Counted from the first letter of the stretch, positions 7,742-43,237 are shown. The stretch is DNA of 64,000 nt from Candidatus Latescibacterota bacterium (GCA_965203805.1 OZ241917.1:832001-896000), one strand, 5' to 3'. Numbers and translations: made by a program. The notes: generated by a model not told the origin, from the sequence alone.

Positions 7742-7753
7742 AAGGACATCTCC

Positions 7754-8696: not shown

Positions 8697-8702
8697 TGCA
8701 TA

Positions 8703-14586: not shown

Positions 14587-14632
14587 AATTGGTTCCTTAA
14601 TTCGCGCTGGGCAGGTTCTACTTAGAAACACA

Positions 14633-14914
14633 CCTGTCCAAAATCGGTTTCTGTCTTGGACAGCATCTGGTTCACTTCCGCGAAGCAGCGCTTCGACCAA
14701 GGTAGCGTGAGTTTCAAAAAGTGCCTATTTCACGGGCTTAATGGGACGGGAACAGCACAATTATGGCCACTGGATGAGTCACTTTGTTCTTGGACAGCAT
14801 TGCGAAGACGATCGCAACCTGGTTTTCATTATCCGGGTCAAACCCGTCCAAAATCGCCAATTGAAGCCATATTTCGAACCTTATCTCTGAGAATCCGACG
14901 GTTCTTGGACAGCA
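14633..14914. repeat. Cluster of TCTTGGACAGCA direct repeats and GTCCAAAATCG inverted partners
   Basis: TCTTGGACAGCA at 14654, 14788 and 14903; C(T/C)GTCCAAAATCG at 14634 and 14844. Confidence 0.6.
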
Positions 14915-15084
14915 GTGACTTAGAAAATAACATCAGAAACTACGAAACACGCGAAAAAAACGAAAAATCCGTGACTGAATTCAATTACGACCAGGGGCCT
15001 TCGTGGAGCGCATGGCACTGCGCAGGTAGGCGCGTGATTTCCTCTCCATCACTCCCTCTCAATGGGAAGTCGACAAGCCAAGGT

Positions 15085-15141
15085 CACCCTCACCCGGCGC
15101 TGCGCGCCACCCTCTCCCATAGGGAGAGGGTCTGATTGCCA
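15085..15141. repeat. REP-like palindrome (CCCTCACCC family), copy 2
   Basis: Near-identical direct repeat of 14176-14232. Confidence 0.9.
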
Positions 15142-15193
15142 GCCCGAAGGCGCGGCGTTGGAGGCTTTTATGGTCATCACCTACCGCAAGAAT

Positions 15194-15397
15194 TCAACGA
15201 TTCCGTATCCCGCCGGAATGTTCCTCCGGTACTGACAGACCATCTTCTTCGAGCGCGATGATGTATCCAGCGATCGCCTCCCTGATATTGGCAATCGCGT
15301 CCTGTCTCGTGGCCCCCTGACTGACACAGCCGATCAGACTGGGGCACTCAGCCACCCAGTAGCCGTCTTGACCGGGATACAAAACAACCAGTCTCAT
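15194..15397 (-). CDS. HicB-family antitoxin, orphan
   Basis: MRLVVLYPGQDGYWVAECPSLIGCVSQGATRQDAIANIREAI; start trimmed to ATG 15397; no HicA ORF adjacent. Confidence 0.85.
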   Translation of the reverse strand: MRLVVLYPGQDGYWVAECPSLIGCVSQGATRQDAIANIREAIAGYIIALEEDGLSVPEEHSGGIRNR

Positions 15398-15685
15398 CCT
15401 GTCCTTAATTCGCTTTATTGTTCTCGTTCTCTGCGAGTCACTTCGTGCCGACATTCCCGATTTTCTACAGCCGGCGTGAAAGCCAACACAGATGTTCGGA
15501 TGGGCATCCGAGTCTGGTTGAGCGTTTCGAGAACAAATGCAATAATCTTGCCAATACGCGTTCCGATTCGTTGCCGTGGACTGCCTGGCCATTGTGAGCA
15601 ATTTCCACCTGACGACGTCAGAATCGTCGACGCGCATTTGGAGCGCCCGGCCTTGCTGCTGTAACATCACGCAGCAACCCGCATC

Positions 15686-25028: not shown

Positions 25029-25342
25029 GTTTTCTCTACGGCTTCATTGGCACGATCATCGATGCACAACCCACTGCGAGTGTTGATTACGGATCTGACG
25101 ACGATCAGTATGAGTCTTTTGGTTCCATAAACAACCGAGGTTACTGTGCGGTCCTCTGTATCAGATCTAGCCCAGCGCAATTCTAGTCCAAGCCGACCGT
25201 TTTCAACAACATTAGCACAAATCAAGACAAATTTCTTGCCACTGTTCCAAGTGCGTTAGCGCCGTTTACCGTAACTCACTTCAGGCTGTTTTCTGTGAAT
25301 GTTTCGTTCTGGAACGCTAACTCGCATGCTCACAGAGACCGC

Positions 25343-28952: not shown

Positions 28953-31900
28953 TTACAATCCCATCCGGTATTTGATGTCATAGTTGATGATGAAATCCAG
29001 TTCATCCGCAGTAAAATCGTAGTGGTTCGCCAATGTTTGGTCGATATCGTCAATTGTCGGTTTGCAGGGAGCTACGTTGTATTGATCGACTTCCGCTTTC
29101 CCGTAGACGATGCGTTGTGAGTTCATCTTTAATCCTGCCATCAACTCTTCAACTATACACGATAGCTGTTTTGATAGCTGGCGAAGGCCATCTAATTTTA
29201 TCGGAAATAGTGCAATGTCGGAGGGATAAACATGCCGCGCGTCGGTTAGACTCTTCCAAAGGAAGTAAAAAAGGTTGCTATTTAATATCGAGCAATACAG
29301 CACTGCCAATTCGGAAGATGGCAACCTGAGCTCCGAAATTGTCGTATGGGTCTTGTTGGGTTCCTTTAGGGACCTATAATAAGGGGCAAATGTAAACGTC
29401 TTTATCCAATAACCACCGGCATTGTGGTAATGAACTACGTGAGCGCCACGAAATTGCCGATACGACGCCCAGGGACTTTGATGCGATAACGCCTTGAGTA
29501 ATGCAGAATGCCCAATCGGGTCGTTAACCTTTGGGATACTATAAGCTTGCCTCGATTCCCCCAATTCAAGATATCGCATGTTATAAAAAAGAACCGGGCG
29601 TTCTTCGGAGTACCATGTAATGTAATCGGTCGTATAACCTTTCGCGTTCGTTCCTTTTTTAGATATGCATATTGTATTCCTCTGCATTACGCCGGGAAAT
29701 AAAGCGGCGGGCCTGAGGGCGAAATTGCTTAACCAGATTACGGAGTTTTGGTCGAACAACAATCCTTGGAGCGCTGCCATACGCTGGGCTGCGGTGAGCG
29801 ATATTGGATTGATAAAGCCAAACCTGCCACTCTCGCAAAGGAGCAGATTCGATCGCTCGATCGTAAACGCGTATAGGTTTCCACAATGCTCCGTCGAAAA
29901 GTCGTTTATTGTATATATCGTGCGAACCTTTTTGTATTCGACATACGGTGGATTCCCGATCACCACGTCAAACCCACCCCTTTGCACGATACCATAGAAT
30001 TCCACGAACCAGTGGAATGGCTGGTGGCTTGCACACCATTGCTCGTAGGCAGTTGCGTCGTTTTCTTGGACACCGTATTCACCAGCCAGATATCGGTCCA
30101 ATTGGTCCCGAAGGTCATCGAGCCGTCCACGCAGATTAACCTTTGCTTGAGCGAATACTTGCGCATCCATCTCTTGTTCGGTCTGCATTTTCTGGAACAT
30201 ACGAAAAGCGCGATCAGCGACGTCGGCGCGTTCTTCGATGTCGGGAAGCGATTGTTCCTTGAATAAGTCGCCCCTTACAGCCCGTCTCACATCGTCAAGA
30301 GAGGTAAAGCCAACCAATGTGTTGCCAGCGCGTATGTTGAAGTCGATGTCGGGCAAAGGCTCGATCTGTTCGACGCTTTCCAGTTGCGCAACGAGCTTCA
30401 GGAAGAGGCGCAGTTTGCAGATTTCGACAGCCTCTTCCATTATGTCCACACCATAGAGATTGTTGATAATGATGGACTTGAGAATGAAATATCGCTCGCT
30501 GGGATGAGACTCGACCTGTTTGAGTATCTGCCGGAAGTCGTTCATCTTTTCGGGGCGATGTTTGCGCTTCGATCGCTCTAAATCATCCAGAAGACCGCGC
30601 ATCGCCTCCAGGCACGCGGTGTAGATGGGTTCCAGGATGTTGAGTGCCGCAAACAGGAAGGCGCCGGATCCGCAGGTGGGATCCAGAATCGACACCCCGG
30701 AAATTGCCTTCCAAAAGGCGCGGACCAGTTCAGGTCCCTCGCTCCCCGAAATGACGTCTTGCGCGAATTTCTCAATATCCAGGTTGTACGTAATCAGGTC
30801 GTTGATTTCTATGACCTTACCCGCGGTAAGTTTGGCGTATACTTCCTCGTAGTGGCGCCGACGTGCTACATGCTCGCGCCAGGTTTCGGTTGGCAGTGCA
30901 TAGTCGCCGGTCGCGGGTTCATTCCAGTTGTCGCGTTTTGCGACGTCTTCCAGTCCTGCTGCGATTTCCGAAGGCAGGTCGCGCTTCCGCACAAGGTCTT
31001 CCTTCTTGTGGATATCGTTCGTGATCCCGTGACGGACCGCTTCGTAGAAGTACCGATCCGGCTCCTCCTGCAACAGAGACCACACCCCTCCGCCGGGCCT
31101 GAACGCAATTGGACACGCCTTCTTTGCCTGGTCGAACAGAAACGGAATGATCGTATTGCGGCTGATGTATCCGGTGATGTCCTCTTTGGTGTAGTAGGCC
31201 CCCATCTGCTTCTGGTTGATGTACTTCTCGAAGATGTAGCCGAGCACGTCGGGGTTGATCTCATTGTCATTGCGTAACGGCCGGTCGTCCAGGTGCCACT
31301 GATAGGCGTCGAAAAAATCGAAGATTCGCTCGAACGCTTCATCGGGGATCCGAATTTCCGGATTGTCGTGCTCCAGATCGTGGACGTCGAAAAGGCCGCC
31401 GTTGAGGAATGGCACCTTGCCAAGCAGGCTCACAATCTCCGGGGTGCGGTCGGCCTCCGGTCGCCCCAGCCCGTCATGAAACAGCCTAAGAAGGAATACC
31501 CGATAGAACCTGTTGAAACGCCCGTTTCCATATTGCTGCCGAACCTTTTCGAGACGGTCGCGGAGGTATTCGGTGTTGTTGTCGAGGAATCCGCGTTTCT
31601 GGATGAAGTAGATGAACATCATGCGGTTCAGCATCAGCGAGGCGTACCATTCTTTCTCGGCCAGGTCTCCGATCCCCTCGATGAACCCCAGAAAGGCCTC
31701 GTGTTCCTTCTTGAAGCGGTCGTAGAACCGTTTTGTGACCTTTTCGACGTCAAAGGCTGCCCGAACCCGACCAGATACGTCAACGATAGTCAGGTCGTCT
31801 TCTTCGTCGAGTGTGAAGGCGATGTTTTCGAGCTTCTGAATGAGCCGTTCGCCGGTATCCCCTCGGCGGAACGATTCCGAACGTTGCCGGTCCGGACGGC

Positions 31901-32231
31901 TCGGCTCGCGTTTTACCCACTGCCAGGACTGCTCGCTCTTGTCACGGGTGGTGTAGACGATGATGTGTTCGCGGACCTGTTTGGCGACGGCTTTTTCGAT
32001 CTTCGTTCGGGTAGGATACTCGGGAATCGTCGTCCCGGCGTCAGCGACGTGCTGGTACGCGACCATGCCCCGTTTGTGTGCAACAGCTTCGAGGGTAAAC
32101 GACCGCTGATCGGCTTCGACCACCGTATCGACACCCCCGTGGTCCCAGCCCAGTTCCTCAATGAAGAGCGCACGGAGGTTGAATTCTTCCAGATACGTCC
32201 TGACTTTGTCTCTGTTCAATTTTGAGGGCAC
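28953..32231 (-). CDS. N6-adenine DNA methyltransferase, Eco57I-like, with C-terminal target recognition domain
   Basis: GAYYT, ILDPTCGSGAFL (motif I), LYGVDI, VIGNPPY (motif IV). Confidence 0.92.
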   Translation of the reverse strand: MPSKLNRDKVRTYLEEFNLRALFIEELGWDHGGVDTVVEADQRSFTLEAVAHKRGMVAYQHVADAGTTIPEYPTRTKIEKAVAKQVREHIIVYTTRDKSEQSWQWVKREPSRPDRQRSESFRRGDTGERLIQKLENIAFTLDEEDDLTIVDVSGRVRAAFDVEKVTKRFYDRFKKEHEAFLGFIEGIGDLAEKEWYASLMLNRMMFIYFIQKRGFLDNNTEYLRDRLEKVRQQYGNGRFNRFYRVFLLRLFHDGLGRPEADRTPEIVSLLGKVPFLNGGLFDVHDLEHDNPEIRIPDEAFERIFDFFDAYQWHLDDRPLRNDNEINPDVLGYIFEKYINQKQMGAYYTKEDITGYISRNTIIPFLFDQAKKACPIAFRPGGGVWSLLQEEPDRYFYEAVRHGITNDIHKKEDLVRKRDLPSEIAAGLEDVAKRDNWNEPATGDYALPTETWREHVARRRHYEEVYAKLTAGKVIEINDLITYNLDIEKFAQDVISGSEGPELVRAFWKAISGVSILDPTCGSGAFLFAALNILEPIYTACLEAMRGLLDDLERSKRKHRPEKMNDFRQILKQVESHPSERYFILKSIIINNLYGVDIMEEAVEICKLRLFLKLVAQLESVEQIEPLPDIDFNIRAGNTLVGFTSLDDVRRAVRGDLFKEQSLPDIEERADVADRAFRMFQKMQTEQEMDAQVFAQAKVNLRGRLDDLRDQLDRYLAGEYGVQENDATAYEQWCASHQPFHWFVEFYGIVQRGGFDVVIGNPPYVEYKKVRTIYTINDFSTEHCGNLYAFTIERSNLLLCESGRFGFINPISLTAAQRMAALQGLLFDQNSVIWLSNFALRPAALFPGVMQRNTICISKKGTNAKGYTTDYITWYSEERPVLFYNMRYLELGESRQAYSIPKVNDPIGHSALLKALSHQSPWASYRQFRGAHVVHYHNAGGYWIKTFTFAPYYRSLKEPNKTHTTISELRLPSSELAVLYCSILNSNLFYFLWKSLTDARHVYPSDIALFPIKLDGLRQLSKQLSCIVEELMAGLKMNSQRIVYGKAEVDQYNVAPCKPTIDDIDQTLANHYDFTADELDFIINYDIKYRMGL

Positions 32232-32270: not shown

Positions 32271-32396
32271 TTAGTGAAGCGGTTCGATTTCGTCGGATCG
32301 CGCGAAGTCGTGCTGGTTCTGCGTTACCAGCCTTCGGACGCCATGGGTTGCTATTTTAGCCAAGTTGAAAAGCGTGTCACTGGCCATCATCGCCAT
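32271..32396 (-). pseudogene. Internally deleted PIN/VapC toxin remnant
   Basis: 41-codon ORF MAMMASDTLF...ATHGVRRLVTQNQHDFARSDEIEPLH overlapping the AbrB stop; keeps the PIN C-terminal T.N..DF motif but not the core. Confidence 0.65.
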
Positions 32397-32649
32397 AGAT
32401 CTCATCCCTATTCCACGACGTCGTCTTTCCAGTCCTGACCGTCACCAGATCCAGCATCGGGACATCGGCGTCTGTCGTCCCCGTCCCGTCCAACTCGTCT
32501 AGATCGGATTCATTATCGGACCTGGGACGAAGAAGGAGGCCGTCAGGTCCTTTCTCAATCTCAAGATGGTCTCCCGGACCTACCCGCAGCATGTTTTGCA
32601 CCCGCTTTGGTAGGGTGACCTGACCCTGTGAACTTATCTTAACGATCAT
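32377..32649 (-). CDS. AbrB/MazE/SpoVT-family antitoxin
   Basis: MIVKISSQGQVTLPK.V...L.VGPGD.LE; antitoxin-like tail WNRDEIY. Confidence 0.88.
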   Translation of the reverse strand: MIVKISSQGQVTLPKRVQNMLRVGPGDHLEIEKGPDGLLLRPRSDNESDLDELDGTGTTDADVPMLDLVTVRTGKTTSWNRDEIYGDDGQ

Positions 32650-32677
32650 GGGGACTTCCTTAGAACCCGATTGAGGG

Positions 32678-32722
32678 TAACCGAACCAGTACTATTGCGT
32701 CAATCCCTTAGCGACGGGTCAT
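32678..32722 (-). pseudogene. 5' scar of PIN toxin with a stop at codon 5
   Basis: MTRR*GIDAIVLVRL versus MTRRFGIDTSVLVRL in the intact PIN gene at 39007-39405. Confidence 0.8.
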
Positions 32723-32942
32723 ACGATTGTCTCCTGAAGTCCTGGAGATCAAATGTCCCACGTCCGCGCCGGATTTTGTGGCGCAACGTCCCGAGACGGG
32801 TACAAACGATGCGCCCCGGCCTCAGGACGAACCCGTCGGGCCCTTCTACGATTTCGAGTTGGTCGCCCGGGCCAACGCCCAGTGCGTTAAGCAATCGTTC
32901 GGGCAACGTGACCTGTCGTTTCGACGTTATTTTGACGATCAT
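32700..32942 (-). CDS. AbrB/MazE/SpoVT-family antitoxin, close paralogue of 39383-39625
   Basis: MIVKITSKRQVTLP...GVGPGDQLEIVEGPDGF...SYDPSLRD, 80 aa. Confidence 0.9.
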   Translation of the reverse strand: MIVKITSKRQVTLPERLLNALGVGPGDQLEIVEGPDGFVLRPGRIVCTRLGTLRHKIRRGRGTFDLQDFRRQSYDPSLRD

Positions 32943-32964
32943 GGATATTCGGCTGAGATTCATC

Positions 32965-33152
32965 GGACTACGAAACAAAAGAAAGGACTACGAAAGATAC
33001 GAAAAGGCACGAAAAAGGATCAAAGACATTGGACTACGAAAGACACTAAGTGGTGCGAAATAGGATCAGAGGCATGAACTACGAAAAACGCGAAAAGGCA
33101 CGAAATAGGATCACAAGCACGGACTACGAAAGATACAAAATGACGCGAAAAT
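32965..33152 (+). repeat. Tandem ~45-bp repeat array 1 (CTACGAAA..CGAAA..CGAAA)
   Basis: Units start at 32985, 33031, 33076 and 33121, with a partial unit at 32965. Confidence 0.9.
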
Positions 33153-33160
33153 GAGGTCTG

Positions 33161-33544
33161 TCATTCGTTTACGAAACGTTCGTATTCCAGCCCTGGATGA
33201 TGGCCGAAGTTGACGAGCAGGCCGAGTTTAACGCTTGTTGATTTCAGGTAGTTGATGATTTGGGCACGATGTTCATCTTTCAATTGTTTCACTGCCTTGA
33301 TTTTCACGATAATTCTGCCGAAACAGAAAAAATCCGGCTGGTAGAATTGCTTCAATGCCTGTCCTTTGTACCGAAGTTTCAAGTCCATTTTCTCTTCGTA
33401 CGTGATCGCCGAGGAAGCGAATTCCATCGCAAGACACTCCTGGTAAACCGCTTCAAGAAAGCCGGCTCCTTTTTCCTTGTACACTTCGAAGCAGGCACCG
33501 ATTATCCGATAGCTTTCCTCTTTGTAGACGATTTTTCCTGTCAT
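33161..33544 (-). CDS. GxxExxY protein (PD-(D/E)xK superfamily)
   Basis: GAGFLEAVY, QPDF, HRAQIINYLK, GLLVNFG; expected ExK reads KIK. Confidence 0.92.
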   Translation of the reverse strand: MTGKIVYKEESYRIIGACFEVYKEKGAGFLEAVYQECLAMEFASSAITYEEKMDLKLRYKGQALKQFYQPDFFCFGRIIVKIKAVKQLKDEHRAQIINYLKSTSVKLGLLVNFGHHPGLEYERFVNE

Positions 33545-33637
33545 ACCTTTCGCGTCTTTTCGCGGGTTTCGTAGTTAATCAAGCCCATGGAGCAGATGAT
33601 TCGATGGCTTTCTCTTTGTGGATGTCCACTCGAAAAT

Positions 33638-33823
33638 GCGAAATTAAGATCAAAGGCATGAACTACGAAAGACACGAAAAGGCACGAAACAGGATCAGAG
33701 GCAGGAACTACGAAAAATACGAAAAGGCACGAAATAGGATCAGAAGCAGGAACTACGAAAAATACGAAATGACGCGAAATAGATTCAAAAGAACAGGCGA
33801 CCAAAGATACGAAGGGCACGAAA
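33638..33823 (+). repeat. Tandem 45-bp repeat array 2
   Basis: GAACTACGAAA units at 33660, 33705 and 33750 plus degenerate flanking units. Confidence 0.9.
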
Positions 33824-33835
33824 GAGTATCCCTGA

Positions 33836-33940
33836 TTCGTTTACGTAACGTTCGTATTCCAGTCTTGGATGATGACCGAAGTTGACGAGCAGGCCGAGTT
33901 TCACGCCTGTTGCATTCACGTAGACGATTTTTCCTGTCAT
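33836..33940 (-). pseudogene. Internally deleted second GxxExxY copy
   Basis: MTGKIVY joined in frame to ATGVKLGLLVNFGHHPRLEYERYVNE, i.e. both termini of 33161-33544. Confidence 0.88.
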
Positions 33941-34097
33941 TTCTTTCGCGTCTTTTCGCGACTTTAGTAGTTTATCAGACCCATAGAACAGATGAATTAC
34001 GGCTTCTGCGGTTCATGTTCCACTCCGACAACGTGAGCTACTCTATGCCGACGATTTCTCTACTCATACCTTTCGTGTCTTTTCGCGTCTTTCGTAG

Positions 34098-37000
34098 TTA
34101 TTCTTTCCTCGTCTTTTCGCGATTTTCGTAGTCAACCAAGCCCATAGAACAGATGATTCGAGGCTCCTGCGGTTCGTCGTCCTCGTGCACGACACACAGC
34201 CGCCCATCTTCCCAAATCTCGATCACGACAGAAGCCAGATCCTCGTCAGAAATACCGCTGCGCAGTTGCCGGTTCAGTTTATCCACGGTCGATTGCCGCA
34301 GCGGATATCGGTAGATCTCACCCACCGCCCGCCGAAGCTGTTGTGTATCGAAGAGCGTTCCCTCGACACTCTCGGCATAATTCTTCAGCCGTTCATAGGT
34401 GCGGAATCTCGCACCGGAAGGTCGTCCCAGTTGACCGCCGACCTGATTCTCCTCGCGCGCGATCCGTTCCGCGGCTTTTCCGACAAGATTGTGATGTTTC
34501 TCGTGCCTGGGCAACGCGGGAGTATCCGGTTTGCATTCTGCTGCACGCAGGATTTCAAACTGGCTTTCTGTGACGCTGTCCCCTTTCCGATCCATCCACG
34601 AGAGGGCATCGTTGTCCTGTGTCGTCCGCATGTAAACGAGTACACCAGCCTGCTGATTCTCTTTAGACGAGGCGGCTTTGGAGGTATGTACGACGTCCGG
34701 CATCTCCTCCACTTTTTTCTCCAGCGCCTGATCGGCAGTTGTGGCGTTTTTCCAGATCTGATAGGCATAAGAAGCCAGGTCTACCTCGGAATCGTCGTCG
34801 CCGTCAAGGATTCCGGTCTGTTCGTTATACAGATCCACGACGGAACGAGTGTCATCGTCCTCGAAAAAGGCTTCGTCGGTTCCCACGACTTCGGCATTCT
34901 CGCCGAGGCGCTGCCTTACGCGGGCGCGTAACCGAATCACGCGTTCAATGCCCTCGGCAGGAAGAAAGGAGTAACAGAGGATGTCCTGCGCCGACTGCCC
35001 TATACGGTCCACACGTCCGGCTCTCTGAATCAGCCGGATTATCGCCCACGGAAGGTCGTAATTGACCACGATGGCGCAATCCTGCAGGTTCTGTCCCTCG
35101 CTCAACACGTCCGTCGCGACCAGCACTCTGAGTTCCTCATCAGCCGCGGTCTGCCCGCCCTTTTCATTGCTCCTGGGACTGAAACGCCAGGCAAGCTGAG
35201 TCGGATCCGCCGAACCGCCCGTAACGCCGGACAACCGTTCCACGCCCCCATCCCTGAGTTGACGTTCCAGGTAATGTACCGTGTCGGCGAACTGCGTGAA
35301 GACCAGAACCTTGTCACGTGGATGCTTGTCCGCAAGGATTTCCTGCAGCGCGACGAGCTTGGCGTCGAGTGACGGATTCCATTGGCCGAAGTCCTCCAAC
35401 ATTTCACGCAACGTTTTAGTGTCCGACAAAAGAGATTGCAGCAGTGACTCACCGAAATGACGCGGACTGAGCCACCGAAATCGACTTCTGTATCGTTCGG
35501 CGTAATCAGTGTAAACTCTCGTGGCGTGCCGACGGAACTCTTCCTCGGTTCTTAGAGAGTGTTCGGTCTGATTCTGGCCGCCTTCGTCCTCTCCTTCGTC
35601 AAAAATGTCACCGGCGGCGCCGTCCGCATCCTCGTCGTAAGATTGGGGATCCAGAATGCCGGCATCTGTCGTGCCGATCGGCAGATCGAGTCCGTTTTCG
35701 ATGGCGTGGATAAAGATGAAGTTCCTCAGGACATGCCGCTCGATCGACAGCAGGAACGAATGACCGCTGCTTTCTAGGCGTTTGAACAGATTCGTGCGGC
35801 AGAAGCCCATGAGGCGCCGTCCCGCGCGCGACAGGTCCTGCAGGATCCGGTCCTCGGCAGACGATGGCGGCGGGGCGACGGACGCCGCCAGGTAGTTTGC
35901 CAGACCGTAGCGCGGGAGTTCCAAACCATTGATAGAGGATACCACGTTGTCGTCGAATAGGCGCGCGTATTGGTTGTCGATTTCGAAACCCACGGTTCGG
36001 GGAACGCGAACGGGGAAATAGGAACGCGAGCCGTCTTCGAATGTCAGATACCTTCGTCCATTGGCCGGATCCAGCGTTGCGTAGTTCTCTTGAATAAAGC
36101 TGCGCGTGCGCCGTACGAGGTAGAGTCGCATCAACTCGCGCCAGTCGTCCGCGTATTCCGACTGTTCGAATGCCGCGAGAGACCGTACGTCTGCCTGATG
36201 GCGGCGAATGAACTCGGTTTCTCCCATCTCCCGTAGCAGGCGCTCGGGTCTGATTCCCAGGTCTTCATCCTCACGCACAAACAGTCGGATCTGGTTTGAG
36301 AGATCCTGGTACGTCTTATTGTACGGCGTGGCCGAAAGCAGGATGCACTTGCTTTCGTTCTCACGGATGTATTCCTGGATCGCACGGTAACGCTTGCCCT
36401 CACGGTTCCTGAGATTATGGCTCTCGTCGATCACAACCAGCCTGTAGCGTCGCATGTCGGGTAGTCTATTGATAGCCTGGCTGATCGAAAGTACCCGCGC
36501 ACGCAGCCGATACTCGTCGCGATAGTCCTCCCACATCGCCACCAGGTTTTTCGGGCAGATAATCAGCGTTGCTACCCCATGATCGTCTTCAAACACCCGC
36601 GCTAACGCCGTGGCCATCAGCGTTTTACCAAGCCCAACCACATCGCCGATGATAACACCGCCACGCTTGTTCAGGTGGTGTGCGGCGATCTTCACGGCGG
36701 CCACCTGGAAATCGAGAAGCTTGCTGCCGAAGTCGTTCGGAATTCGGAACTCAGTCAGACCCGCCCGGGCTTCCTGCGACAGGTGATAAGCCATCTTCAC
36801 GTAAATGTGGTACGGCGGAATCAGTCGAGGCCCCGCCCAACTTTCGTCGATAATCTGCGCCAACTCCTCAGAAATATCGATGCACCAGCGGTCGTTCCAG
36901 CGATCTTCGAACCATTGCGCAAGCTTAGCACACGCATCGTGATCCATCACGTCAACGTTCAACTCACCCTGCCGGGAAAGACCGGACTGCGTGAGATTGC

Positions 37001-37484
37001 TACTGCCGAGGTATCCGACTTTTGGATTGATGGGATCCGGCCGGAACAGCATGTACAGCTTGGCATGGAGCGGATCTCTGAGGAAGAGTTTGACAACGAC
37101 CTTGTTGGCCTTGATCTGTTTTGACAATCTGCGAAGCCCAGCCTCGTCTTTATTGTTTGGTGCTCCGATGACCAACTGATCCCTGAATTCTTCCGCGAGC
37201 CGTTTCTTCAGCCGAAGCGCGGTCTGATTGTCGAGTTTTGCATCCCGAGAGATCAGACTCCTGGCGAGTCGAAATTCCTCGTGCGGCAAGCGGTGCATGC
37301 CCACCAGCAAGCGGCAACAATGCCCCTCCCCACCCTTCCATTTTTCGACGTATTCGTCGATATTCCGCCACCCGCGCAGGTTGAAGTAGCCCACACAGAA
37401 ATCCGCACGTTCGGAAACCTCCATCGTCTCCTGAAGTGCAGGAAGAAGCGGCTGTTCAATATTGTCGAAAATACGCGGCATCAA
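34098..37484 (-). CDS. Phospholipase D-type nuclease plus SNF2-like SF2 helicase (putative restriction subunit)
   Basis: LHAKLY...GSSNLT (HKD-type); GDVVGLGKT; IDESHN; LSATP; SEGQNLQ; QRAGRVDRIG. Confidence 0.92.
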   Translation of the reverse strand: MMPRIFDNIEQPLLPALQETMEVSERADFCVGYFNLRGWRNIDEYVEKWKGGEGHCCRLLVGMHRLPHEEFRLARSLISRDAKLDNQTALRLKKRLAEEFRDQLVIGAPNNKDEAGLRRLSKQIKANKVVVKLFLRDPLHAKLYMLFRPDPINPKVGYLGSSNLTQSGLSRQGELNVDVMDHDACAKLAQWFEDRWNDRWCIDISEELAQIIDESWAGPRLIPPYHIYVKMAYHLSQEARAGLTEFRIPNDFGSKLLDFQVAAVKIAAHHLNKRGGVIIGDVVGLGKTLMATALARVFEDDHGVATLIICPKNLVAMWEDYRDEYRLRARVLSISQAINRLPDMRRYRLVVIDESHNLRNREGKRYRAIQEYIRENESKCILLSATPYNKTYQDLSNQIRLFVREDEDLGIRPERLLREMGETEFIRRHQADVRSLAAFEQSEYADDWRELMRLYLVRRTRSFIQENYATLDPANGRRYLTFEDGSRSYFPVRVPRTVGFEIDNQYARLFDDNVVSSINGLELPRYGLANYLAASVAPPPSSAEDRILQDLSRAGRRLMGFCRTNLFKRLESSGHSFLLSIERHVLRNFIFIHAIENGLDLPIGTTDAGILDPQSYDEDADGAAGDIFDEGEDEGGQNQTEHSLRTEEEFRRHATRVYTDYAERYRSRFRWLSPRHFGESLLQSLLSDTKTLREMLEDFGQWNPSLDAKLVALQEILADKHPRDKVLVFTQFADTVHYLERQLRDGGVERLSGVTGGSADPTQLAWRFSPRSNEKGGQTAADEELRVLVATDVLSEGQNLQDCAIVVNYDLPWAIIRLIQRAGRVDRIGQSAQDILCYSFLPAEGIERVIRLRARVRQRLGENAEVVGTDEAFFEDDDTRSVVDLYNEQTGILDGDDDSEVDLASYAYQIWKNATTADQALEKKVEEMPDVVHTSKAASSKENQQAGVLVYMRTTQDNDALSWMDRKGDSVTESQFEILRAAECKPDTPALPRHEKHHNLVGKAAERIAREENQVGGQLGRPSGARFRTYERLKNYAESVEGTLFDTQQLRRAVGEIYRYPLRQSTVDKLNRQLRSGISDEDLASVVIEIWEDGRLCVVHEDDEPQEPRIICSMGLVDYENREKTRKE

Positions 37485-37544
37485 GAACCCTCGCTACGTA
37501 TGGGGATCGCAATCGCTTTTCACCTCGGGAATCGGGCAATACCA

Positions 37545-37573
37545 GATATAGGTAAGAATGCGCCGCGTGTCAA
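37545..37573 (-). promoter_or_regulatory. Putative sigma70 promoter of the helicase operon
   Basis: TTGACA-N17-TATATC about 60 bp upstream of the helicase start. Confidence 0.5.
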
Positions 37574-37780
37574 CCGGGCAGTGATACGCCCCGCATTCCC
37601 AAATGATATTAAACTGTTGATAACAAGCTGTTTAATCTGTTTATTCGAGGCTTCTTTCTGTGTCACGCAGTGTCCTTCATGCTGCGGTATCCTATGCGAC
37701 AAAAAGGAAAAACCCCTTTTCGGGCGAATCATCTACACGTTACCTTGAAACGGCTTTCACGGTAGGGTTCGATCGGAAAC

Positions 37781-37820
37781 ACAAAAATGGCCATTCAAAC
37801 AGAAAGTCAGAATGGCCATT
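37781..37820 (-). terminator. Rho-independent terminator, diverged copy of the tRNA-Gly trailer
   Basis: TGGCCATTC...GAATGGCCA stem plus TTTTT; homologous to 42124-42163. Confidence 0.75.
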
Positions 37821-37895
37821 GTCGGCCGCGAAGAAAAAAGTTAAATCCGTGGAATTGCAGGATTAGCGCAACCCACTTTATCGCTCATTTCAACA

Positions 37896-38123
37896 TTAAT
37901 TCAATCCACTCATTACATCTTGCCTAGCCATATCGATAAGGTGTTTCTCTGGATTTTCTCGAAGGACCATTAACATGCCAACATAGGCTACATCTGTCGC
38001 AGCGTATCTGAATCGATTTGCAGGTCTGTTATCCCGAAACACCCTATAAAACGCAGATTCACCGTATGAAATCAGCCGAATTTCGTATTCTTGATTGTCG
38101 TGTTCGAATTTCTCGACGGTCAT
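37896..38123 (-). CDS. Small hypothetical protein
   Basis: 75 aa from ATG 38123 with GGAGG upstream. Confidence 0.55.
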   Translation of the reverse strand: MTVEKFEHDNQEYEIRLISYGESAFYRVFRDNRPANRFRYAATDVAYVGMLMVLRENPEKHLIDMARQDVMSGLN

Positions 38124-38314
38124 TTTGGCCTCCGTATTTTGACGGCGTGAAATCTGTTGTCTTCGCGACCCACATTGTACTATAACGATTCCGGCGGAAT
38201 TTGCAAGTCGATTCAACGAAATAATCGGCATGAGAACCGGTACGTCTGTGTTTTCATCCCCATCCAGTTTTCTTTAGACAGTCGCTACGCCGTCAAGCCT
38301 GGCTGTGCGTATTG

Positions 38315-38767
38315 TCAGCCGCTGCTTCTGTCGAACTCAAGCCTGCCGGCCTGTTGATAGAGTTCGGCCAATGCCCCTTCGGCCTCTTCGTAGATCTCTC
38401 GCAGCTTTCGGTTTTTCCGGATCAGTGGATGGCTTCCGATGAATTGATAGATGTAGTCCACCGCGACGGACGCTCGATCCATGAGCTCGAAATAATGGCC
38501 GTCGTTTATTGGCATTTCCGAATCGTCGGGCAACAGAGTTGATCCACCGTCTCTCTGCTCTTCTTCAAGTATGGGTAAACGGAACGCCCGAAGGAAATAC
38601 CTTATGTCTTCTCGTAACTCCTCGGGGGATTCACCCAGCGGTTCGACCGGTTCTTCCGTCCATTTCTCTATGCTTCCGTCCTCGCCGTAATAAACCTCGT
38701 GGACGTGATACGTCACCGAGTCGGTTTCGGTATGGCGGTTCCGGATGACCCTGTAGTTCCACGTCAT
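38315..38767 (-). CDS. Hypothetical protein (MTWNYRV...HEVYY type)
   Basis: 150-aa ORF with purine-rich RBS; no assignable function. Confidence 0.75.
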   Translation of the reverse strand: MTWNYRVIRNRHTETDSVTYHVHEVYYGEDGSIEKWTEEPVEPLGESPEELREDIRYFLRAFRLPILEEEQRDGGSTLLPDDSEMPINDGHYFELMDRASVAVDYIYQFIGSHPLIRKNRKLREIYEEAEGALAELYQQAGRLEFDRSSG

Positions 38768-38835
38768 CTCTTTTCTCCCGTGACGGCTCGGGTGACGAAC
38801 GGCCGGTTAATCGCTCTTATATACGATCATCTTCA

Positions 38836-38983
38836 TCAGCCGCCACGTGGTTACGTGTCCCGCGGCATCCTGCCCGAGGGACGATCCGGGCCCGATCGAG
38901 AGTCAGGGACTTTCAGGAGCTTGCTGCCCTCGACAATCGAGTCGTACGCCGGGATGGTCGGGCAGCGCTTCAACCGGCGACTG
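38836..38983 (-). pseudogene. Diverged remnant of the Gfo/Idh/MocA oxidoreductase (internal piece plus 3' end)
   Basis: PVEALPDHP and YDSIVEGSKLLKVPDSRSG..GRMP versus PIESLPDHP and HDSIEAGSTPLKVPDFRPG..GGMP in 39675-40868. Confidence 0.75.
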
Positions 38984-39006
38984 GAATTGGTCCGCAATGC
39001 TTCTTT

Positions 39007-39405
39007 CTACAGGTGGCGAACATCGGGCAGGGCGGCCATCTTTTGGTCGAGCGTGAGGACTTGCATTCCAGCGCGTGAATAGTCGTCGGCGATGAGCCGG
39101 TCAAACAGGCCGGCGCCGCCGGAAGCATGAAGGGCTTCGATAACCGAGCGCCCGTTCAGGGGGGAGACCAGGCCGCTGCCCAGCGCGTCGAGCAAAGAGG
39201 TTCGGGCATCGGCTTTCGATACGCCATAGTGGTGCTGTACCGCCACGTAGGACTCTCCGACGACCTGGTTTGAAACGAAGATTTCATGGCCGTGCTCACG
39301 GACCAGCGCGCCAAGTTTGCTTACGCAATACACGAAGTGTTCTTCCGGATCTCTGGTGAGCAACCGCACGAGGACTGACGTGTCAATCCCGAAGCGACGG
39401 GTCAT
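39007..39405 (-). CDS. PIN-domain (VapC-like) toxin
   Basis: GIDTSVLVRLL, VVGESY, FDRLIA, LTLD; overlaps the antitoxin stop. Confidence 0.9.
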   Translation of the reverse strand: MTRRFGIDTSVLVRLLTRDPEEHFVYCVSKLGALVREHGHEIFVSNQVVGESYVAVQHHYGVSKADARTSLLDALGSGLVSPLNGRSVIEALHASGGAGLFDRLIADDYSRAGMQVLTLDQKMAALPDVRHL

Positions 39406-39625
39406 ACGATTTCTCCCGGAATTTCTGGAGATCAAACGTCCCACGTCCGCGCCGGATCTTGTCGCGCAGCGTACCGAGACGGGAAAGATCAATTCGTCTG
39501 GGCTTCAGCGCGAACCCGTCGGGACCTTCTACGATCTCGAGCTGGTCGCCCGGGCCTACCCCCAGAGCGTCCAGCACACGCGCAGGAAAGGTGACCTGGC
39601 GTTTTGACGTGATTTTGACAATCAT
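39383..39625 (-). CDS. AbrB/MazE/SpoVT antitoxin (VapB-like)
   Basis: MIVKITSKRQVTFP; GGAGGT RBS; upstream of PIN gene. Confidence 0.9.
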   Translation of the reverse strand: MIVKITSKRQVTFPARVLDALGVGPGDQLEIVEGPDGFALKPRRIDLSRLGTLRDKIRRGRGTFDLQKFREKSYDPSLRD

Positions 39626-39634
39626 GACGCACCT

Positions 39635-39673
39635 CCTTACTATTAATATAATAAAGTAAGGCAAACAGGTCAA
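39635..39673 (-). promoter_or_regulatory. TA promoter with overlapping autoregulatory operator
   Basis: TTGACC-N17-TATATT; inverted repeat CCTTACT-N13-AGTAAGG (39635-39661) spans the -10. Confidence 0.75.
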
Positions 39674-39674
39674 G

Positions 39675-40868
39675 TCAGTCGCCACCCAACTCCATGCCCC
39701 CCGGCATCCCCCCCGCCCGGCGTTGCGAGCCCGGGCGAAAGTCGGGGACCTTCAGGGGCGTGCTCCCCGCCTCGATCGAATCGTGCGCTCTGATTGCGGG
39801 CGCGATGGTGTCCATGGCCGTGTACACGTCCAGGGGAAGCGGCTTTCCCTCCCGCACGGCGTCTCTGAAGTGAAGGTGAACGTAATAGTCGGCGTCGCCG
39901 TGGCCGCTGCCCCGGGACCCTGAAGGGGCATCCCTGCGCTGGTACTGCCAGTCCACCTCCGCCCAATCGTTCATCTGAGTATCGGCAAGCCACATCTTCG
40001 GCTTCTCGTCGAGCGACCGGCGCCACTCGATACCGCCCTCGGTGCCGATGAACTGCCACCAGTGGTGGTCGCCTTGCGGCCTGGGCTGGGTAAACCCGCA
40101 CAGCATCCGGATCACTGTGTCCTTCTCCGTCTTCATCAACGCGACCTGTATGTCCGGACGAGAGATCTCAGGGAAGGCGTAGCTGGGCTCGTTCGTGCTC
40201 ATTCCCACCACCTCGACGACCCGATCGTCGAGCACATTCAGAACCACACTCATATCGTGAGAACCGATGCCGCCGATGATTGTGGGTAGCGTGTGCAGCA
40301 CCGTCGGTTCGGCCTCGGGATGATCGGGCAGCGATTCGATGGGATACTGCTTACCCGTCTTGAAATCCTGGAAATACTGATGCGTGCCGTACCACCCCAC
40401 GTACTGGCCCTCGGCGTAGGTAATCCTGCCCAGCCGTCCCTGTCCTACGAGTTGCCGCCAGCCCTCCACAACCCCCCAGTACCGCGTCTGCTCGGCCAGG
40501 CTGTATACCAGCCCCGTCCGCTCCACGTTGGTGACGATTCGCCAACAGTCCGACATCGCGTACGCCGCGGGCACCTCGGAGTTCACGTGTTTTCCCGCCT
40601 CCAGCGCCCGCGCGGCCATCTCCCCGACTTCCTTCTGCCTCACACACAGACCCACCGCATCCGTCCCGTCGAACGCGAGGAAATCCTCATAATCGGAGAA
40701 CACGTTCACATCATCGCCGTCGCGGATGTGTCCCAGCGCACGCTCCTGCAGGGGTTCGATCCAGTCATAGATCGCCGTAATCCGGTACCCCGGGATCTCC
40801 TGCAACAGTCGAATCCAGTTCAGGGCGCGGTGGCCCAGCCCGGCGATCCCGATTCGCACGTTGTCCAT
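39675..40868 (-). CDS. Gfo/Idh/MocA-family oxidoreductase
   Basis: RIGIAGLGHR, AGKHVNSEVPA, GHGDADY; start trimmed to ATG 40868. Confidence 0.9.
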   Translation of the reverse strand: MDNVRIGIAGLGHRALNWIRLLQEIPGYRITAIYDWIEPLQERALGHIRDGDDVNVFSDYEDFLAFDGTDAVGLCVRQKEVGEMAARALEAGKHVNSEVPAAYAMSDCWRIVTNVERTGLVYSLAEQTRYWGVVEGWRQLVGQGRLGRITYAEGQYVGWYGTHQYFQDFKTGKQYPIESLPDHPEAEPTVLHTLPTIIGGIGSHDMSVVLNVLDDRVVEVVGMSTNEPSYAFPEISRPDIQVALMKTEKDTVIRMLCGFTQPRPQGDHHWWQFIGTEGGIEWRRSLDEKPKMWLADTQMNDWAEVDWQYQRRDAPSGSRGSGHGDADYYVHLHFRDAVREGKPLPLDVYTAMDTIAPAIRAHDSIEAGSTPLKVPDFRPGSQRRAGGMPGGMELGGD

Positions 40869-40879
40869 TTCGAGAATCC

Positions 40880-41956
40880 TTACACTGAACCGGAAACCCG
40901 AACCGGGCCGACGAACAGATCGTCCGGCAGCAGGCTCGAGGTCACGACTGAATGGGGGTGGTTGAAGCCATCGGTGGTGACCTGGGCCATTGCCGTGTAA
41001 TGCGTGCTTTCTCCGCTCACGCCGCAGCGATTTCCGCCGCTGTGCCCTCTGAGCCATTTGGGATCGACCAATAGCTCGCCCTTCCACTTCCCCCGCGTCG
41101 CCAGCAGATGCCCGAAACGAGCGATATCCGAGGGGCTCATCACGACCCACCCCGGACCGCTTCGCACCACGTGACCGTTGATTTCATAGGGCGGATCGAG
41201 ATAGGTATAGGAATCCGGTATGTCGGGATAAAAGTACTTGTTTTCACTCACCGTACGGCCGGTGTACCAGTCCCACCGCCCGGCAGGAATCCCGATCTTG
41301 CCGAACAGCCGCTCGTCCAGCAGGTCTTTCAGGTCGCGGTCCCAGACGAACGTCAGCGCCTGGCCCAGCCGCCAGAATCCGGCGCTGCTGTAGCGTTCTT
41401 TCGTGCCCGGCTTCACGTGCGAATAGAGGTCATAAAACGGATCGCCGGTCCAAGTTGCCCACTCGGGGCGCCCTTCGCGTCCCTGCGCCCATGCGCTTCC
41501 CAATTCCATGGGAAACCCTCCCAGATGCGCGCTGCGGTCCTTCGCTCCGATGAGGTGGCGCCAGGTGAGCGTCCGGTGGTGTCCGCGGTTCAGATATTTG
41601 TGTGGATGCGATAGCTCCCCCTCTCCCGTCCAGGTCCTGTGGATCGGCTCATCAGGATCCAGTATCCCGTCTTCCACGGCATACCCGATCAGCACCCACA
41701 TGAACGCCTTGCCCATCGACGCCGTCTGAAACCGGTAGTGCCGGTCGCCCCAGACATGCACGAGGTAGCCTCCGCGCGTGAGGACCGTGCCCCACTTGTC
41801 ACCGGTATGATCCTCGCCGCCGAACGACGCGCCCTTGATGTTCAGTCCCGACAGAAAGCGTTCGAACGCTTCGGCGTCCAATCCGGCGTCGGCCGGCGTG
41901 ATCGTGATCCAGTCATCGGCGGGATAGGTTACCCAATCCGGGATCTCGTGTTTCAC
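40880..41956 (-). CDS. Beta-lactamase-like serine hydrolase
   Basis: ASMGK (SxxK), YSS, DIARFGHLL..RGKWKG. Confidence 0.8.
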   Translation of the reverse strand: MKHEIPDWVTYPADDWITITPADAGLDAEAFERFLSGLNIKGASFGGEDHTGDKWGTVLTRGGYLVHVWGDRHYRFQTASMGKAFMWVLIGYAVEDGILDPDEPIHRTWTGEGELSHPHKYLNRGHHRTLTWRHLIGAKDRSAHLGGFPMELGSAWAQGREGRPEWATWTGDPFYDLYSHVKPGTKERYSSAGFWRLGQALTFVWDRDLKDLLDERLFGKIGIPAGRWDWYTGRTVSENKYFYPDIPDSYTYLDPPYEINGHVVRSGPGWVVMSPSDIARFGHLLATRGKWKGELLVDPKWLRGHSGGNRCGVSGESTHYTAMAQVTTDGFNHPHSVVTSSLLPDDLFVGPVRVSGSV

Positions 41957-41989
41957 GATGCGGTTCCTTCCGACAGAAAGATCGCGAGG

Positions 41990-42082
41990 CGGGCAGACAG
42001 GAATGTCCGCCTGCCTGCGCAGCGAACTGCCTGCCTGTGCGTGTACGCCTGCCTGCGCAGTGCCCTGCGCTGCAGGCAGGCC
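41990..42082. repeat. Nested REP-like cluster (GGCAGACAGGAATGTCCGCC plus CCTGCCTGCGCAG units)
   Basis: Three GCCTGCCTG units closed by CAGGCAGGC; 42046-42071 matches 15007-15032 in reverse complement at 24 of 26 positions. Confidence 0.7.
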
Positions 42083-42123
42083 CCACCCTCAAACTTGCTA
42101 CCGTGTACACGTCATTTCCACCA

Positions 42124-42163
42124 ACAAAAACGGCCATTCAAACGTGAAAGTTAAATGGCCATT
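42124..42163 (-). terminator. Rho-independent terminator after tRNA-Gly
   Basis: GGCCATTT...GAATGGCC stem plus TTTTT, about 25 bp beyond the CCA end. Confidence 0.75.
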
Positions 42164-42189
42164 GTCCGGGCAGCAAAAGTGGAATTTTA

Positions 42190-42265
42190 TGGAGCGGGAA
42201 ACGGGACTCGAACCCGCGACTTCAAGCTTGGGAAGCTTGCGCTCTACCAGCTGAGCTATTCCCGC
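42190..42265 (-). tRNA. tRNA-Gly(CCC)
   Basis: GCGGGAATAGCTCAGCTGGTAGAGCGCAAGCTTCCCAAGCTTGAAGTCGCGGGTTCGAGTCCCGTTTCCCGCTCCA, 76 nt cloverleaf with encoded CCA. Confidence 0.97.
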
Positions 42266-42295
42266 CCCCGTTAATCGTGAAATCTACCAACTCCC

Positions 42296-43237
42296 TCAGA
42301 GGGTGTCAAGAATTTTGAGAATGGCGTCGGGCGCGCCGTCTTCGTTTGCATCGATCCACGTCAGCCGGCGGTCCTTGCGAAACCACGTGAGCTGTCGTTT
42401 GGCGTACCGCCTGGTACCCATCTTGATTTGCGCCGCGGTTTCTGCCAGGTCCAGTTTCCCGTCCAGATAGTCGAACACCTCGCGGTATCCGAACGTATTG
42501 AGCGCGTTGAGTTCCGGACCGTAACCGCGGCCCTGCAGTTCACGGACTTCGTCGACGAGCCCGGAATTGAACATCGCGTCGACCCGTTCTTCGATCCTCC
42601 GGTACAGTAAGGACCTGTCCATCTTCAGTCCGAACCGCGCCACGCACCAGTTTCTCCCGGTTGGCGGGGGCTGCTCGTGAAGCACCGAGAGCGGCGTTCC
42701 CGTCAGCTCGAGAACTTCAAGCGCGCGCACGATACGTTTGGTATCGTTGGCGTGCAGGCGTTCGGCCGTTCGCGGGTCGACGCCGCGCAACCGGGCGTAG
42801 ATTCCGGCCGGATCTTCGTCCGCTTCGGCCATCAGACGCCTCCGGACCGCGCGCGGCGTGCGCGGCAGCGGCGAAAAACCGTCGAGGACCGCCTTCAGAT
42901 AAAGGCCCGACCCCCCCACGAGGACGGGGATCCGGTTTCGATCCAGAATCGACTCGATTGCCTCGCAAGCGTCGCTGGCAAAATGCCCGGCGCTAAAGTC
43001 TTCGTCGGGGTTCACCACGTCGATCATGTGGTGTTTCGCAAGGGCACGCTCTTCCACCGTGGGTTTGGCCGTACCGATGTCCATATGCCGGTAGACCTGG
43101 CGTGCGTCCGCGGAGACCACTTCACCGCCGATCGCCCTCGCCAGGGCGATGCCAACCCGGGTCTTGCCGGATGCGGTGGGGCCCACGAGCGCCAGTATTC
43201 GGCGGCGCCTATCTGCTGAATTGCCGGTCGATTTCAT
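42296..43237 (-). CDS. miaA: tRNA dimethylallyltransferase
   Basis: GPTASGKT, MDIGTAKP, GGSGLY, TRRYAKRQLTWF. Confidence 0.96.
   Translation of the reverse strand: MKSTGNSADRRRRILALVGPTASGKTRVGIALARAIGGEVVSADARQVYRHMDIGTAKPTVEERALAKHHMIDVVNPDEDFSAGHFASDACEAIESILDRNRIPVLVGGSGLYLKAVLDGFSPLPRTPRAVRRRLMAEADEDPAGIYARLRGVDPRTAERLHANDTKRIVRALEVLELTGTPLSVLHEQPPPTGRNWCVARFGLKMDRSLLYRRIEERVDAMFNSGLVDEVRELQGRGYGPELNALNTFGYREVFDYLDGKLDLAETAAQIKMGTRRYAKRQLTWFRKDRRLTWIDANEDGAPDAILKILDTL

Follow-up and report, generated by a model that had tools for sequence, protein, structure and literature searches.

Displacement of gene ends by incoming DNA is treated in those parts of Kirchberger et al. (2017; PMC5361080) that concern type VI secretion system (T6SS) effector-immunity arrays and the orphan 3' ends of Rhs and contact-dependent inhibition (CDI) genes. 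These parts describe homology-facilitated illegitimate recombination (HFIR), in which incoming DNA is anchored by conserved sequence upstream while the former 3' end is displaced downstream. The sections of Oliveira et al. (2017; PMC5635113) on integrase-free transfer hotspots report turnover by recombination in the flanking core genes. Here, copies of gene ends beside cargo genes were analyzed in a stretch of 64,000 nucleotides from Candidatus Latescibacterota bacterium (GCA_965203805.1 OZ241917.1:832001-896000), hereafter the window, at positions 33,545 to 42,189. The analyzed part is the tRNA-Gly-proximal portion of a phage-defence island of about 25 kb that lacks a recombinase, with its core at the same locus genus-wide. 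It contains copies of the tail of an oxidoreductase gene (ox), of the tail of an HKD-SNF2 helicase-nuclease gene, and of a terminator hairpin. These copies are probably the scars of three unrelated ordinary processes, namely tandem duplication, a one-sided illegitimate join and an old terminator copy. The coordinates, shared junctions, parental-type alleles and copy-number variation reported below are direct observations.

The ox case was compared with these described systems. As in the HFIR model of the cited parts of PMC5361080, there is an upstream anchor gene, an apparently non-homologous or microhomologous join, a displaced 3' end downstream and no recombinase, and scar-free alleles exist. 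The layout consists of an intact ox gene, a putatively foreign module and a 5'-truncated ox remnant, and alleles without the insert or the remnant were found in relatives. Unlike in those parts, the anchor here is of metabolic type and lies at the margin of a defence island, a toxin-antitoxin (TA) module takes the place of a toxin tip with an immunity gene as the cargo, one or two events are seen instead of a long array, and either side could have been the resident one. The hotspots in the cited sections of PMC5635113 are similar in having a variable, tRNA-adjacent block between conserved flanks, with no mobility gene and with contents that vary among close relatives. The model given there is a scarless double homologous crossover, whereas here one illegitimate end left a duplicate.

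The window genome (5.87-Mb) is termed G000 and the related genomes G001-G015. For the ox-locus comparison, the locus was drawn from 14 relatives and the window genes were mapped onto each. Every gene in the whole studied stretch is on the minus strand, and the window repeats, promoter and hairpins below are given for the same strand. The intact anchor, ox (39675..41150), encodes a Gfo/Idh/MocA oxidoreductase (Pfam PF01408, PF02894). Its remnant (38863..38983; tblastn, and blastn to relatives) is an internal piece joined to the tail. In a tblastn search of 2.2 kb, 38863-38964 encoded a match to ox residues 450-483 with 19/34 identical (E 6e-6), and 38951-38983 matched residues 268-278 (8/11). 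At the DNA level, the remnant was 80% identical to the ox tail of G013 over 99 nt (E 3e-19) and colinear over 410 nt with the region from the ox tail to h150 of G008 (E 5e-67); G000 positions 38963-38600 were colinear with that region in both G008 and G010. The gene h150 (38315..38767), of unknown function, directly follows ox in these two genomes. An ox tail beyond the intact AbrB-PIN pair, as proposed in the original prediction, is therefore confirmed.

The relatives carry the alleles from which such a structure could be assembled. In G008 and G010, ox is followed directly by h150, with no TA pair. In G001, the ox-module junction is the same as in G000 (27/30 nt) and identity is 94.8% up to 38964, past which G001 runs into a different gene and has no remnant. 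G012 has both junctions as in G000. Thus, both parental-type alleles and the recombinant exist. The remnant joins the right flank of the module at about 38964-38983, and ox is entered at residue 268 in both G000 and G012. Where the two meet, 'cagtcg(c/t)cg..gaagcgct' on the module side lies opposite 'cagtatccggtcgaggcgct' of ox. No whole-gene tandem ox paralogue was found in the 14 related loci examined. The expectation that alleles lacking cargo (G008, G010) or remnant (G001) would be found, rather than tandem paralogues, was therefore borne out. A 9.1-kb contig of another study covers 35068-41956 with 155 differences and spans the layout, so the layout is not an assembly artefact.

The cargo between ox and its remnant is the AbrB-PIN module (39007..39685). 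It comprises an AbrB/MazE-type antitoxin, AbrB1 (ORF 39383-39685, likely start 39625; PF04014, 1.9e-9), and a PIN toxin (39007-39492; PF01850, 6.4e-6). The two open reading frames (ORFs) overlap, and the promoter carries the inverted sequence 'ccttact..agtaagg'; by these features the pair is predicted to be an intact, VapBC-like type II TA module. The promoter, TTGACC-17-TATATT (39645..39673; promoter scan 10/12), overlaps a palindromic operator-like sequence, begins directly past the ox stop codon, and precedes the module in 8 genomes. The limits of the module are sharp, with its own promoter at the left and a right end about 35 nt past the PIN stop codon, and its DNA is 86-90% identical to the modules of G009, G010, G011, G015 and G002. 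The module lies behind ox in G000, G012 and G001, directly behind the helicase gene in G011 and G015, and behind helicase-tail stumps in G009 (165 nt), G002 and G010 (both shorter). These stumps may be leftovers of deletions that had to spare the promoter of the addictive TA pair. A derivation of the last 8 ox codons from a helicase tail was also considered; it is unproven, with only about 14/23 nt matching G015 by eye.

A second AbrB gene, the orphan AbrB2 (32700-32978; Pfam), is adjacent to the helicase gene in G000 and has 81% DNA identity to AbrB1. The AbrB1-PIN pair holds the native promoter and PIN, whereas AbrB2 has lost both, the GxxExxY cassette having replaced its promoter. PIN remnants adjoin the AbrB2 orthologues in G008, G013 and G006. 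AbrB1-PIN therefore cannot be a copy of AbrB2, and the recombinant arises most simply from two allele types, after DNA uptake from a relative. The arrangement of ox, AbrB-PIN and remnant is best read as homology-anchored, one-sided illegitimate recombination between diverged alleles. One illegitimate join at imperfect microhomology would have linked two alleles, with the right flank coming from an 'ox-AbrB-PIN' type and the interior of ox from an 'ox-h150' type. Homologous recombination presumably resolved the other end, and the resulting second, 5'-truncated ox copy would later have lost its middle. Uptake from a relative would make this HFIR or a Campbell-type equivalent.

The helicase gene (34098..37484; Pfam; PADLOC HKD+Snf2, 3.4e-49) encodes the HKD(PLD)-SNF2 helicase-nuclease of a restriction-like pair. 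Its last ~60-80 nt recur at 33941-34014 and 33540-33609, with self-blastn identities of 81% over 75 nt and 83% over 70 nt (E 4e-13 each). The copies flank the GxxExxY gene (gxx) at 33161-33544 and an internally deleted gxx at 33836-33940, so that a helicase tail present three times around GxxExxY units, as originally predicted, was recovered as two extra copies. A repeat search placed them in family D4, with a spacing of 127 in G000. In the first 127-nt-type unit (34038..34161), the native helicase tail is accompanied by a duplicated left arm (34071-34133) and the truncated start of gxx (34038-34067). The second tail copy, with an arm and the internally deleted gxx, occupies 33836..34014 (repeat search and self-blastn), and the third copy, with the left arm of the intact cassette, occupies 33545..33609.

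The repeated unit of 127 nt is arranged head to tail; ~60-80 nt of helicase tail are followed by the arm, and ten codons from the start of gxx complete it. G008 carries 4.9 units with 87% matches (Tandem Repeats Finder, TRF), and the number of helicase-tail copies is 3 in G000, 2 in G013 and 5 in G008. In an alignment of these three genomes, the truncated units have the same gxx-to-helicase-tail junction and carry the diagnostic GTCGGC, whereas the intact genes carry GTCTAC. This common junction and the diagnostic sequence indicate that the duplication arose once and that only the copy number changes. Like variable-number tandem repeats (VNTRs) formed by slipped-strand pairing or unequal recombination, the units have a fixed period, a head-to-tail order, the same junction and a copy number that varies, at 2, 2 and 5 in three genomes. 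Unlike in VNTRs, the unit here reaches from a gene end across a cassette arm into a gene start, and the helicase stop codon lies inside the repeat DNA. For this reason, the repeat mimics a copy of an anchor end. The helicase-tail copies need no repeated import; homology-anchored insertion, which the original prediction applied throughout, is supported for ox, where parental-type alleles survive in relatives, and is not supported for the helicase tails, which form a VNTR with an inherited junction.

A tandem duplication that covers the stop codon of the helicase gene together with the left arm and the ten initial codons of gxx would have arisen once and since varied in copy number as a VNTR does, probably driven by slippage near the hairpin-forming arms. 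At the same arm, G006 has a different unit, of 102-nt x 2.6, which marks the arm as a recurrent duplication point. G000 also has two full cassette units about 672 nt apart (repeat family D6), and in the upstream one the middle of gxx is deleted at a CTAC microhomology. The deletion junction of the broken gxx is the same in G007, so the broken G000 copy is old. Contigs of other metagenome runs contain joints inside the arrays that omit one 46-nt arm unit, or 490-674 nt. These contigs are short and break within repeats, and the joint sides are 20-40 nt in most, so the joints are a hint of copy-number variants in nature.

The intact GxxExxY gene (33161..33544) encodes a PD-(D/E)XK protein (PF13366; Pfam 1.9e-39), and elsewhere in the genome only two distant paralogues occur. 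The gene is enclosed as a cassette by inverted, phased repeats at its start and stop. The right-arm array of the intact cassette (32965..33164; 45 nt x 3.5, TRF; inverted repeats I2-I16) lies in opposite orientation to the left arm and directly adjoins the start codon of AbrB2, and that of the deleted cassette (33639..33782) is 45 nt x 3.2 (TRF; repeat families D1, D2). GxxExxY genes of several phyla (L029-L047) are likewise bracketed by inverted triple repeats with ~10-nt phasing. The arm motif varies by lineage (ACTACGAAA, CCACGAAC, CACGGAA, CGCAGAA, CACAGAT), and the two arms of a locus stay matched. The arm pair scored above all 60 shuffles in 18 of the 25 related loci tested, which come from several phyla and include two with identical flanks. 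No description of the arms was found in the literature under the family names GxxExxY and PDDEXK_3. The cassette of the window resembles these widespread ones in being a small PD-(D/E)XK gene between inverted triple repeats, fitted into an operon junction, with repeat units at points of difference between relatives. It differs in that amplification has turned the right arm into 45-nt arrays, the left arm forms part of the 127-nt repeat and the upstream gene reads into the arm.

The cassette occupies the junction between the helicase gene and the gene for its partner, a type IIG-like methyltransferase (28953..32231; PADLOC REase_MTase_IIG, E 0). In a sister family (11 loci, 10 genomes), the methylase gene starts ~20 nt or less past the helicase gene and there is no passenger. 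In the family of the window, all ten helicase loci hold passengers at this junction (AbrB-PIN, AbrB3 or GxxExxY). These two patterns identify the junction as an insertion hotspot with a known empty site. In G000, the passengers next to the cassette are AbrB2 and AbrB3, the latter a further orphan AbrB-type antitoxin gene (32377-32649; Pfam). AbrB-PIN, the orphan AbrB genes and the GxxExxY cassette may thus be regarded as small selfish passengers that occupy the helicase-methylase junction and the ox side.

The cassette also alters the end of the helicase. Without a cassette, the protein ends at residues 1117-1119 ('...SMGL(I/V)') in 15/23 loci. A match to residue 1125 or beyond was found in the other 8/23, which are exactly the eight directly before a gxx gene or remnant, and helicase genes without a cassette stop about 10 codons sooner than cassette-bearing ones. 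The helicase reading frame enters the left arm (window 34098-34133; loci L060-L082). As the longer helicase is restricted to loci with gxx, the final 11 codons of the G000 gene, with its stop codon, are assigned to the left arm of the cassette.

Other rearrangements were seen in the relatives. In G012 (L013, 13269-13379), h150 is followed by an AbrB3 stump (residues 54-90), with no helicase gene present; a deletion that ends inside a gene, as here, is another source of kept gene ends. The ox gene of G001 has lost residues 87-344. In the same genome (L058, oriented 5891-7026 and 8546-9681), two near-identical two-ORF units resembling insertion sequences lie between AbrB-PIN and the helicase gene. 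In G011 (L022, oriented 6864-8198), broken transposase-like ORFs, which may be of IS256 type, lie just upstream of the helicase gene, beside the second terminator copy.

The third duplicated element is the terminator hairpin. The tRNA-Gly(CCC) gene (42190..42265; ARAGORN; Rfam tRNA, 71.8 bits) forms the core edge of the variable region. Downstream of it lies the hairpin termB (42124..42166; repeat D11; -21.6 kcal/mol, z -3.6), and downstream of the unknown gene h111 lies termA (37781..37823; repeat D11; -24.3 kcal/mol, z -4.8). Both hairpins are followed by a U run and, with their stable fold, look like intrinsic terminators. They were assessed by RNA folding, since a terminator scan missed both (loops >8 nt). 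Only 43-44 nt are alike, at 79% ungapped and 88.6% with one gap. In the 5.87-Mb genome, blastn matches of >17 nt to either hairpin were limited to the two copies themselves, and the two-arm pattern of the hairpin matched only at 37789. The repeat begins 24 nt past the tRNA end and covers the hairpin only; the tRNA itself is not repeated, and Rfam on 32300-42300 gave the tRNA alone. Of a proposed tRNA trailer copy at 37781-37856, the hairpin at 37781-37823 stands, and the extension to 37856 is an 8-nt match by eye.

The terminator duplicate appears in other loci as well. termB adjoins the tRNA in 6/10 relatives' loci and in 3 further loci (G012, G002, G006). G011 has a termA orthologue with ~250 nt of common flank, and termA of G000 and that of G011 are more alike than either is to termB. 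G007 carries a related hairpin on the upstream side of its helicase gene. Between the hairpins of G000, a 4.3-kb segment holds a beta-lactamase-family gene (blac) and ox, both of core-like GC content and both neighbours of tRNA-Gly throughout the genus. The second terminator copy is therefore old and brackets genes conserved beside tRNA-Gly, and it is not evidence for cassette capture; the hairpin would simply persist as two old copies. The proposal that it is a cassette scar behind a 4.3-kb block is not upheld, and of three predicted cases of anchor, cargo and copied anchor end, those of the helicase and ox tails are solid while the third reduces to a 44-nt terminator hairpin. An allele with tRNA-Gly directly upstream of the helicase gene, considered as a source of termA, was rejected because no tRNA was found in the 1.5-kb flanks of 22 relatives' helicase loci.

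Several observations weigh against three separate ordinary processes, or against parts of them. For ox, the microhomology at the join is imperfect, about 7/9 to 15/24 as judged by eye ('cagt..ccg', 'ga.gcgct'). No donor was found, and sliding-window identity along blac-ox against 10 relatives showed no switch of the nearest relative; G012 is the closest relative along the whole of blac-ox, and the intact ox gives no mosaic signal. Two independent ox tail duplications exist, one in G000 and G012 and one in G013, which suggests that one-sided events at ox are not rare. If the allele histories are not tree-like, an extensive tandem duplication and a subsequent deletion could also account for the layout. 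For the cassettes, the deleted gxx is no closer to the intact G000 copy (85-90%) than to copies of other genomes (86-92% for G013). In a nearest-allele comparison over ~89-100 nt, it was 85% identical to the intact G000 copy and 77-87% to the copies of other genomes, a stretch too short and too conserved to be decisive. The second G000 unit may thus have arisen by in-situ duplication or by import from another allele. The deletion junction common to G007 means that the G000 array could itself be a recombinant of two alleles.

Among the alternatives, the one that survives best is that the island grows mainly by repeated Campbell-type or one-sided insertion behind resident genes, leaving displaced 3' ends that are later trimmed, without a recombinase, in the manner of the orphan C-terminal arrays at polymorphic toxin loci. 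The ox case fits this explanation. The ox-tail copy of G013 (53-60 nt), which lies behind a 323-aa gene unique among the 11 loci compared, arose independently and shows that one-sided events at ox recur, here behind different cargo. Both G002 and G006 have an intact gxx unit, preceded by a helicase-tail-like leader, that lies behind AbrB3 and not behind the helicase gene. Over ~95 nt, identity of the ox remnant tail is 77-82% with foreign ox tails, compared with 73-77% for the resident one, and the G012 remnant is 82% identical to the G013 ox and 77% to its own. These values may indicate that the remnant is closer to foreign than to resident ox tails, but they are suggestive only; the expectation that remnants match foreign alleles better holds to the extent that the remnant is at least as close to them as to the resident gene. 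Both the ox and the gxx remnant have lost their middles at microhomologies, as expected from the statement that remnants keep gene ends and lose the middle.

We nevertheless consider repeated insertion as the main route unlikely. The helicase-tail copies are fixed-period, head-to-tail units with an inherited junction and a variable copy number. Most allele differences are deletions that leave stumps of the upstream gene (snf2 tails in G009, G002 and G010; the AbrB3 tail in G012). A genome-wide scan, which was crude and used 60-aa tails and heads of ORFs of 120 aa or more with 8 kb up- and downstream (3361/4281 ORFs), gave 31 downstream orphan tail matches among 3361 ORFs, counting matches that fell outside all ORFs of 120 aa or more. 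The mirror controls gave 28, 30 and 36, so there is no excess, and the downstream tail remnants anticipated genome-wide did not appear; the helicase-tail and ox-remnant cases are two of the 31. Moreover, the mechanism is already described in the cited parts of PMC5361080.

A different explanation assigns an active role to the cassette. The GxxExxY nuclease would cut its own phased inverted arms, and repair of the breaks would yield tail duplications, arm arrays and relocation of passengers. This agrees with inverted triple repeats at helical-turn spacing placed at start and stop codons, with a lineage-specific motif and matched arms, and with the arm pair exceeding all shuffles in most of the loci tested. 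The 127 nt and 102 nt tandem repeats arose independently at the same left arm, and solo arms lie at rearrangement points in G010 and G002. It is quite unlikely, since the ox and AbrB-PIN junctions have no arm, the literature under the names of the family is silent on arms, and hairpin-forming repeats cause slippage without any nuclease. To our knowledge, no activity has been reported for the GxxExxY family, which also counts against this explanation. A broader form, in which the helicase-methylase junction is a recombinase-free landing pad and breaks at GxxExxY arms drive duplications, arrays and one-sided joins between diverged alleles, is likewise improbable.

A further alternative is site-specific integration at gene 3' ends (ox, the helicase gene or the tRNA trailer) by elements that supplied a replacement tail and whose integrase has since been lost; prophages e14 and 21 behave in this way at icd of E. 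coli. Such integration would give the order of intact gene, cargo and diverged displaced tail beside a tRNA gene, but it is highly improbable and largely refuted. No integrase or fragment of one occurs in the scanned ORFs of 90 aa or more, no identical core repeat occurs at the junctions (the ox copies are ~73% alike), the cargo is a 0.7-kb TA module and the tRNA is not duplicated. In addition, none of 22 relatives' loci has a tRNA within 1.5 kb of its helicase gene.

Three separate ordinary processes therefore remain the preferred explanation, and they also bear on the suggested integron-like route. Pfam detected no recombinase, integrase or transposase domain in the scanned ORFs of 90 aa or more at 13-42.3 kb, and at this level the island is integrase-free, as had been stated. 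No site is common to the three junction types, which are helicase tail with arm, module flank with ox microhomology, and terminator hairpin. The similarity to integrons is one of outward look only, with small gene units stacked behind a fixed point. Unlike in integrons, there is no intI encoding an IntI-type tyrosine recombinase and no shared attC-like site, the units are not interchangeable cassettes, and the cargo is not promoterless, since AbrB-PIN has its own TTGACC-17-TATATT promoter in every context. The locus is also not a tRNA-linked island with an att duplication, as the 3' part of the tRNA is not repeated and there is no integrase. With no recombinase, no shared site and no genome-wide excess of tails, an undescribed integron-like route is not supported, and the locus shows known processes, in good resolution, at work in a new setting.

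The genomic setting of the island was also examined. Proceeding away from tRNA-Gly(CCC), the order is termB, blac, ox, AbrB antitoxin, PIN toxin, ox remnant, h150, h111 and termA. This is followed by the HKD-SNF2 gene, the broken and the intact GxxExxY genes (each with repeat arrays), the two orphan AbrB genes, the type IIG-like methylase gene, and then genes for large Dsr1-like and unknown proteins (Pfam, PADLOC). The content of the island thus includes the helicase-nuclease, the methylase, two Dsr1-like proteins and small toxin-antitoxin genes. The GC content is ~0.62 in the core and falls to 0.45-0.57 at ~14-39.5 kb. The block mutL-miaA-tRNA-Gly-terminator-blac-ox is common to the genus, and ox orthologues have 80-89% identity across it.

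Further features were noted around the analyzed genes. At window 20931-28342, a 999-aa and a 1365-aa protein have a common C-terminal region (tail score 162) and match the same part of the Dsr1 model, with the look of tandem paralogues; the N-terminus of the 1365-aa protein carries DUF4258 and DUF2283. Further small TA-type passengers, a gene with a nucleotidyltransferase domain and a HicB-like antitoxin gene, lie where the island ends in low-GC DNA on its far side (window 14293-15670). Between the terminator and blac (window 42004-42068) lies a GC-rich direct repeat (27 nt, 85%), and one metagenome contig omits 51 nt there. In G012, G002 and G006 (L051-L053), a homologous 3-4-kb insert parts the terminator from blac at a site equivalent to window 41957-41981. 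The insert encodes a 320-aa gene, a second antitoxin-PIN pair and a 206-aa gene, and no flanking duplication of this insert was seen.

The locus is a natural example of a defence island without mobility genes that changes its content. As both parental-type alleles and the recombinant survive in relatives, the join at ox can be read to within a few bases. Copies of gene ends beside cargo need not imply a cassette system, since a tandem repeat spanning a gene end, deletions that spare a TA promoter, and one-sided recombination all give the same look. If the explanation by GxxExxY cutting were true, a nuclease would remodel the defence island, and TA addiction would decide which rearrangements survive. 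In this locus, a defence helicase gene takes its final codons and its stop codon from a GxxExxY cassette, which lies at a point of difference between relatives. These features make the case useful for testing what this widespread, unstudied cassette does.

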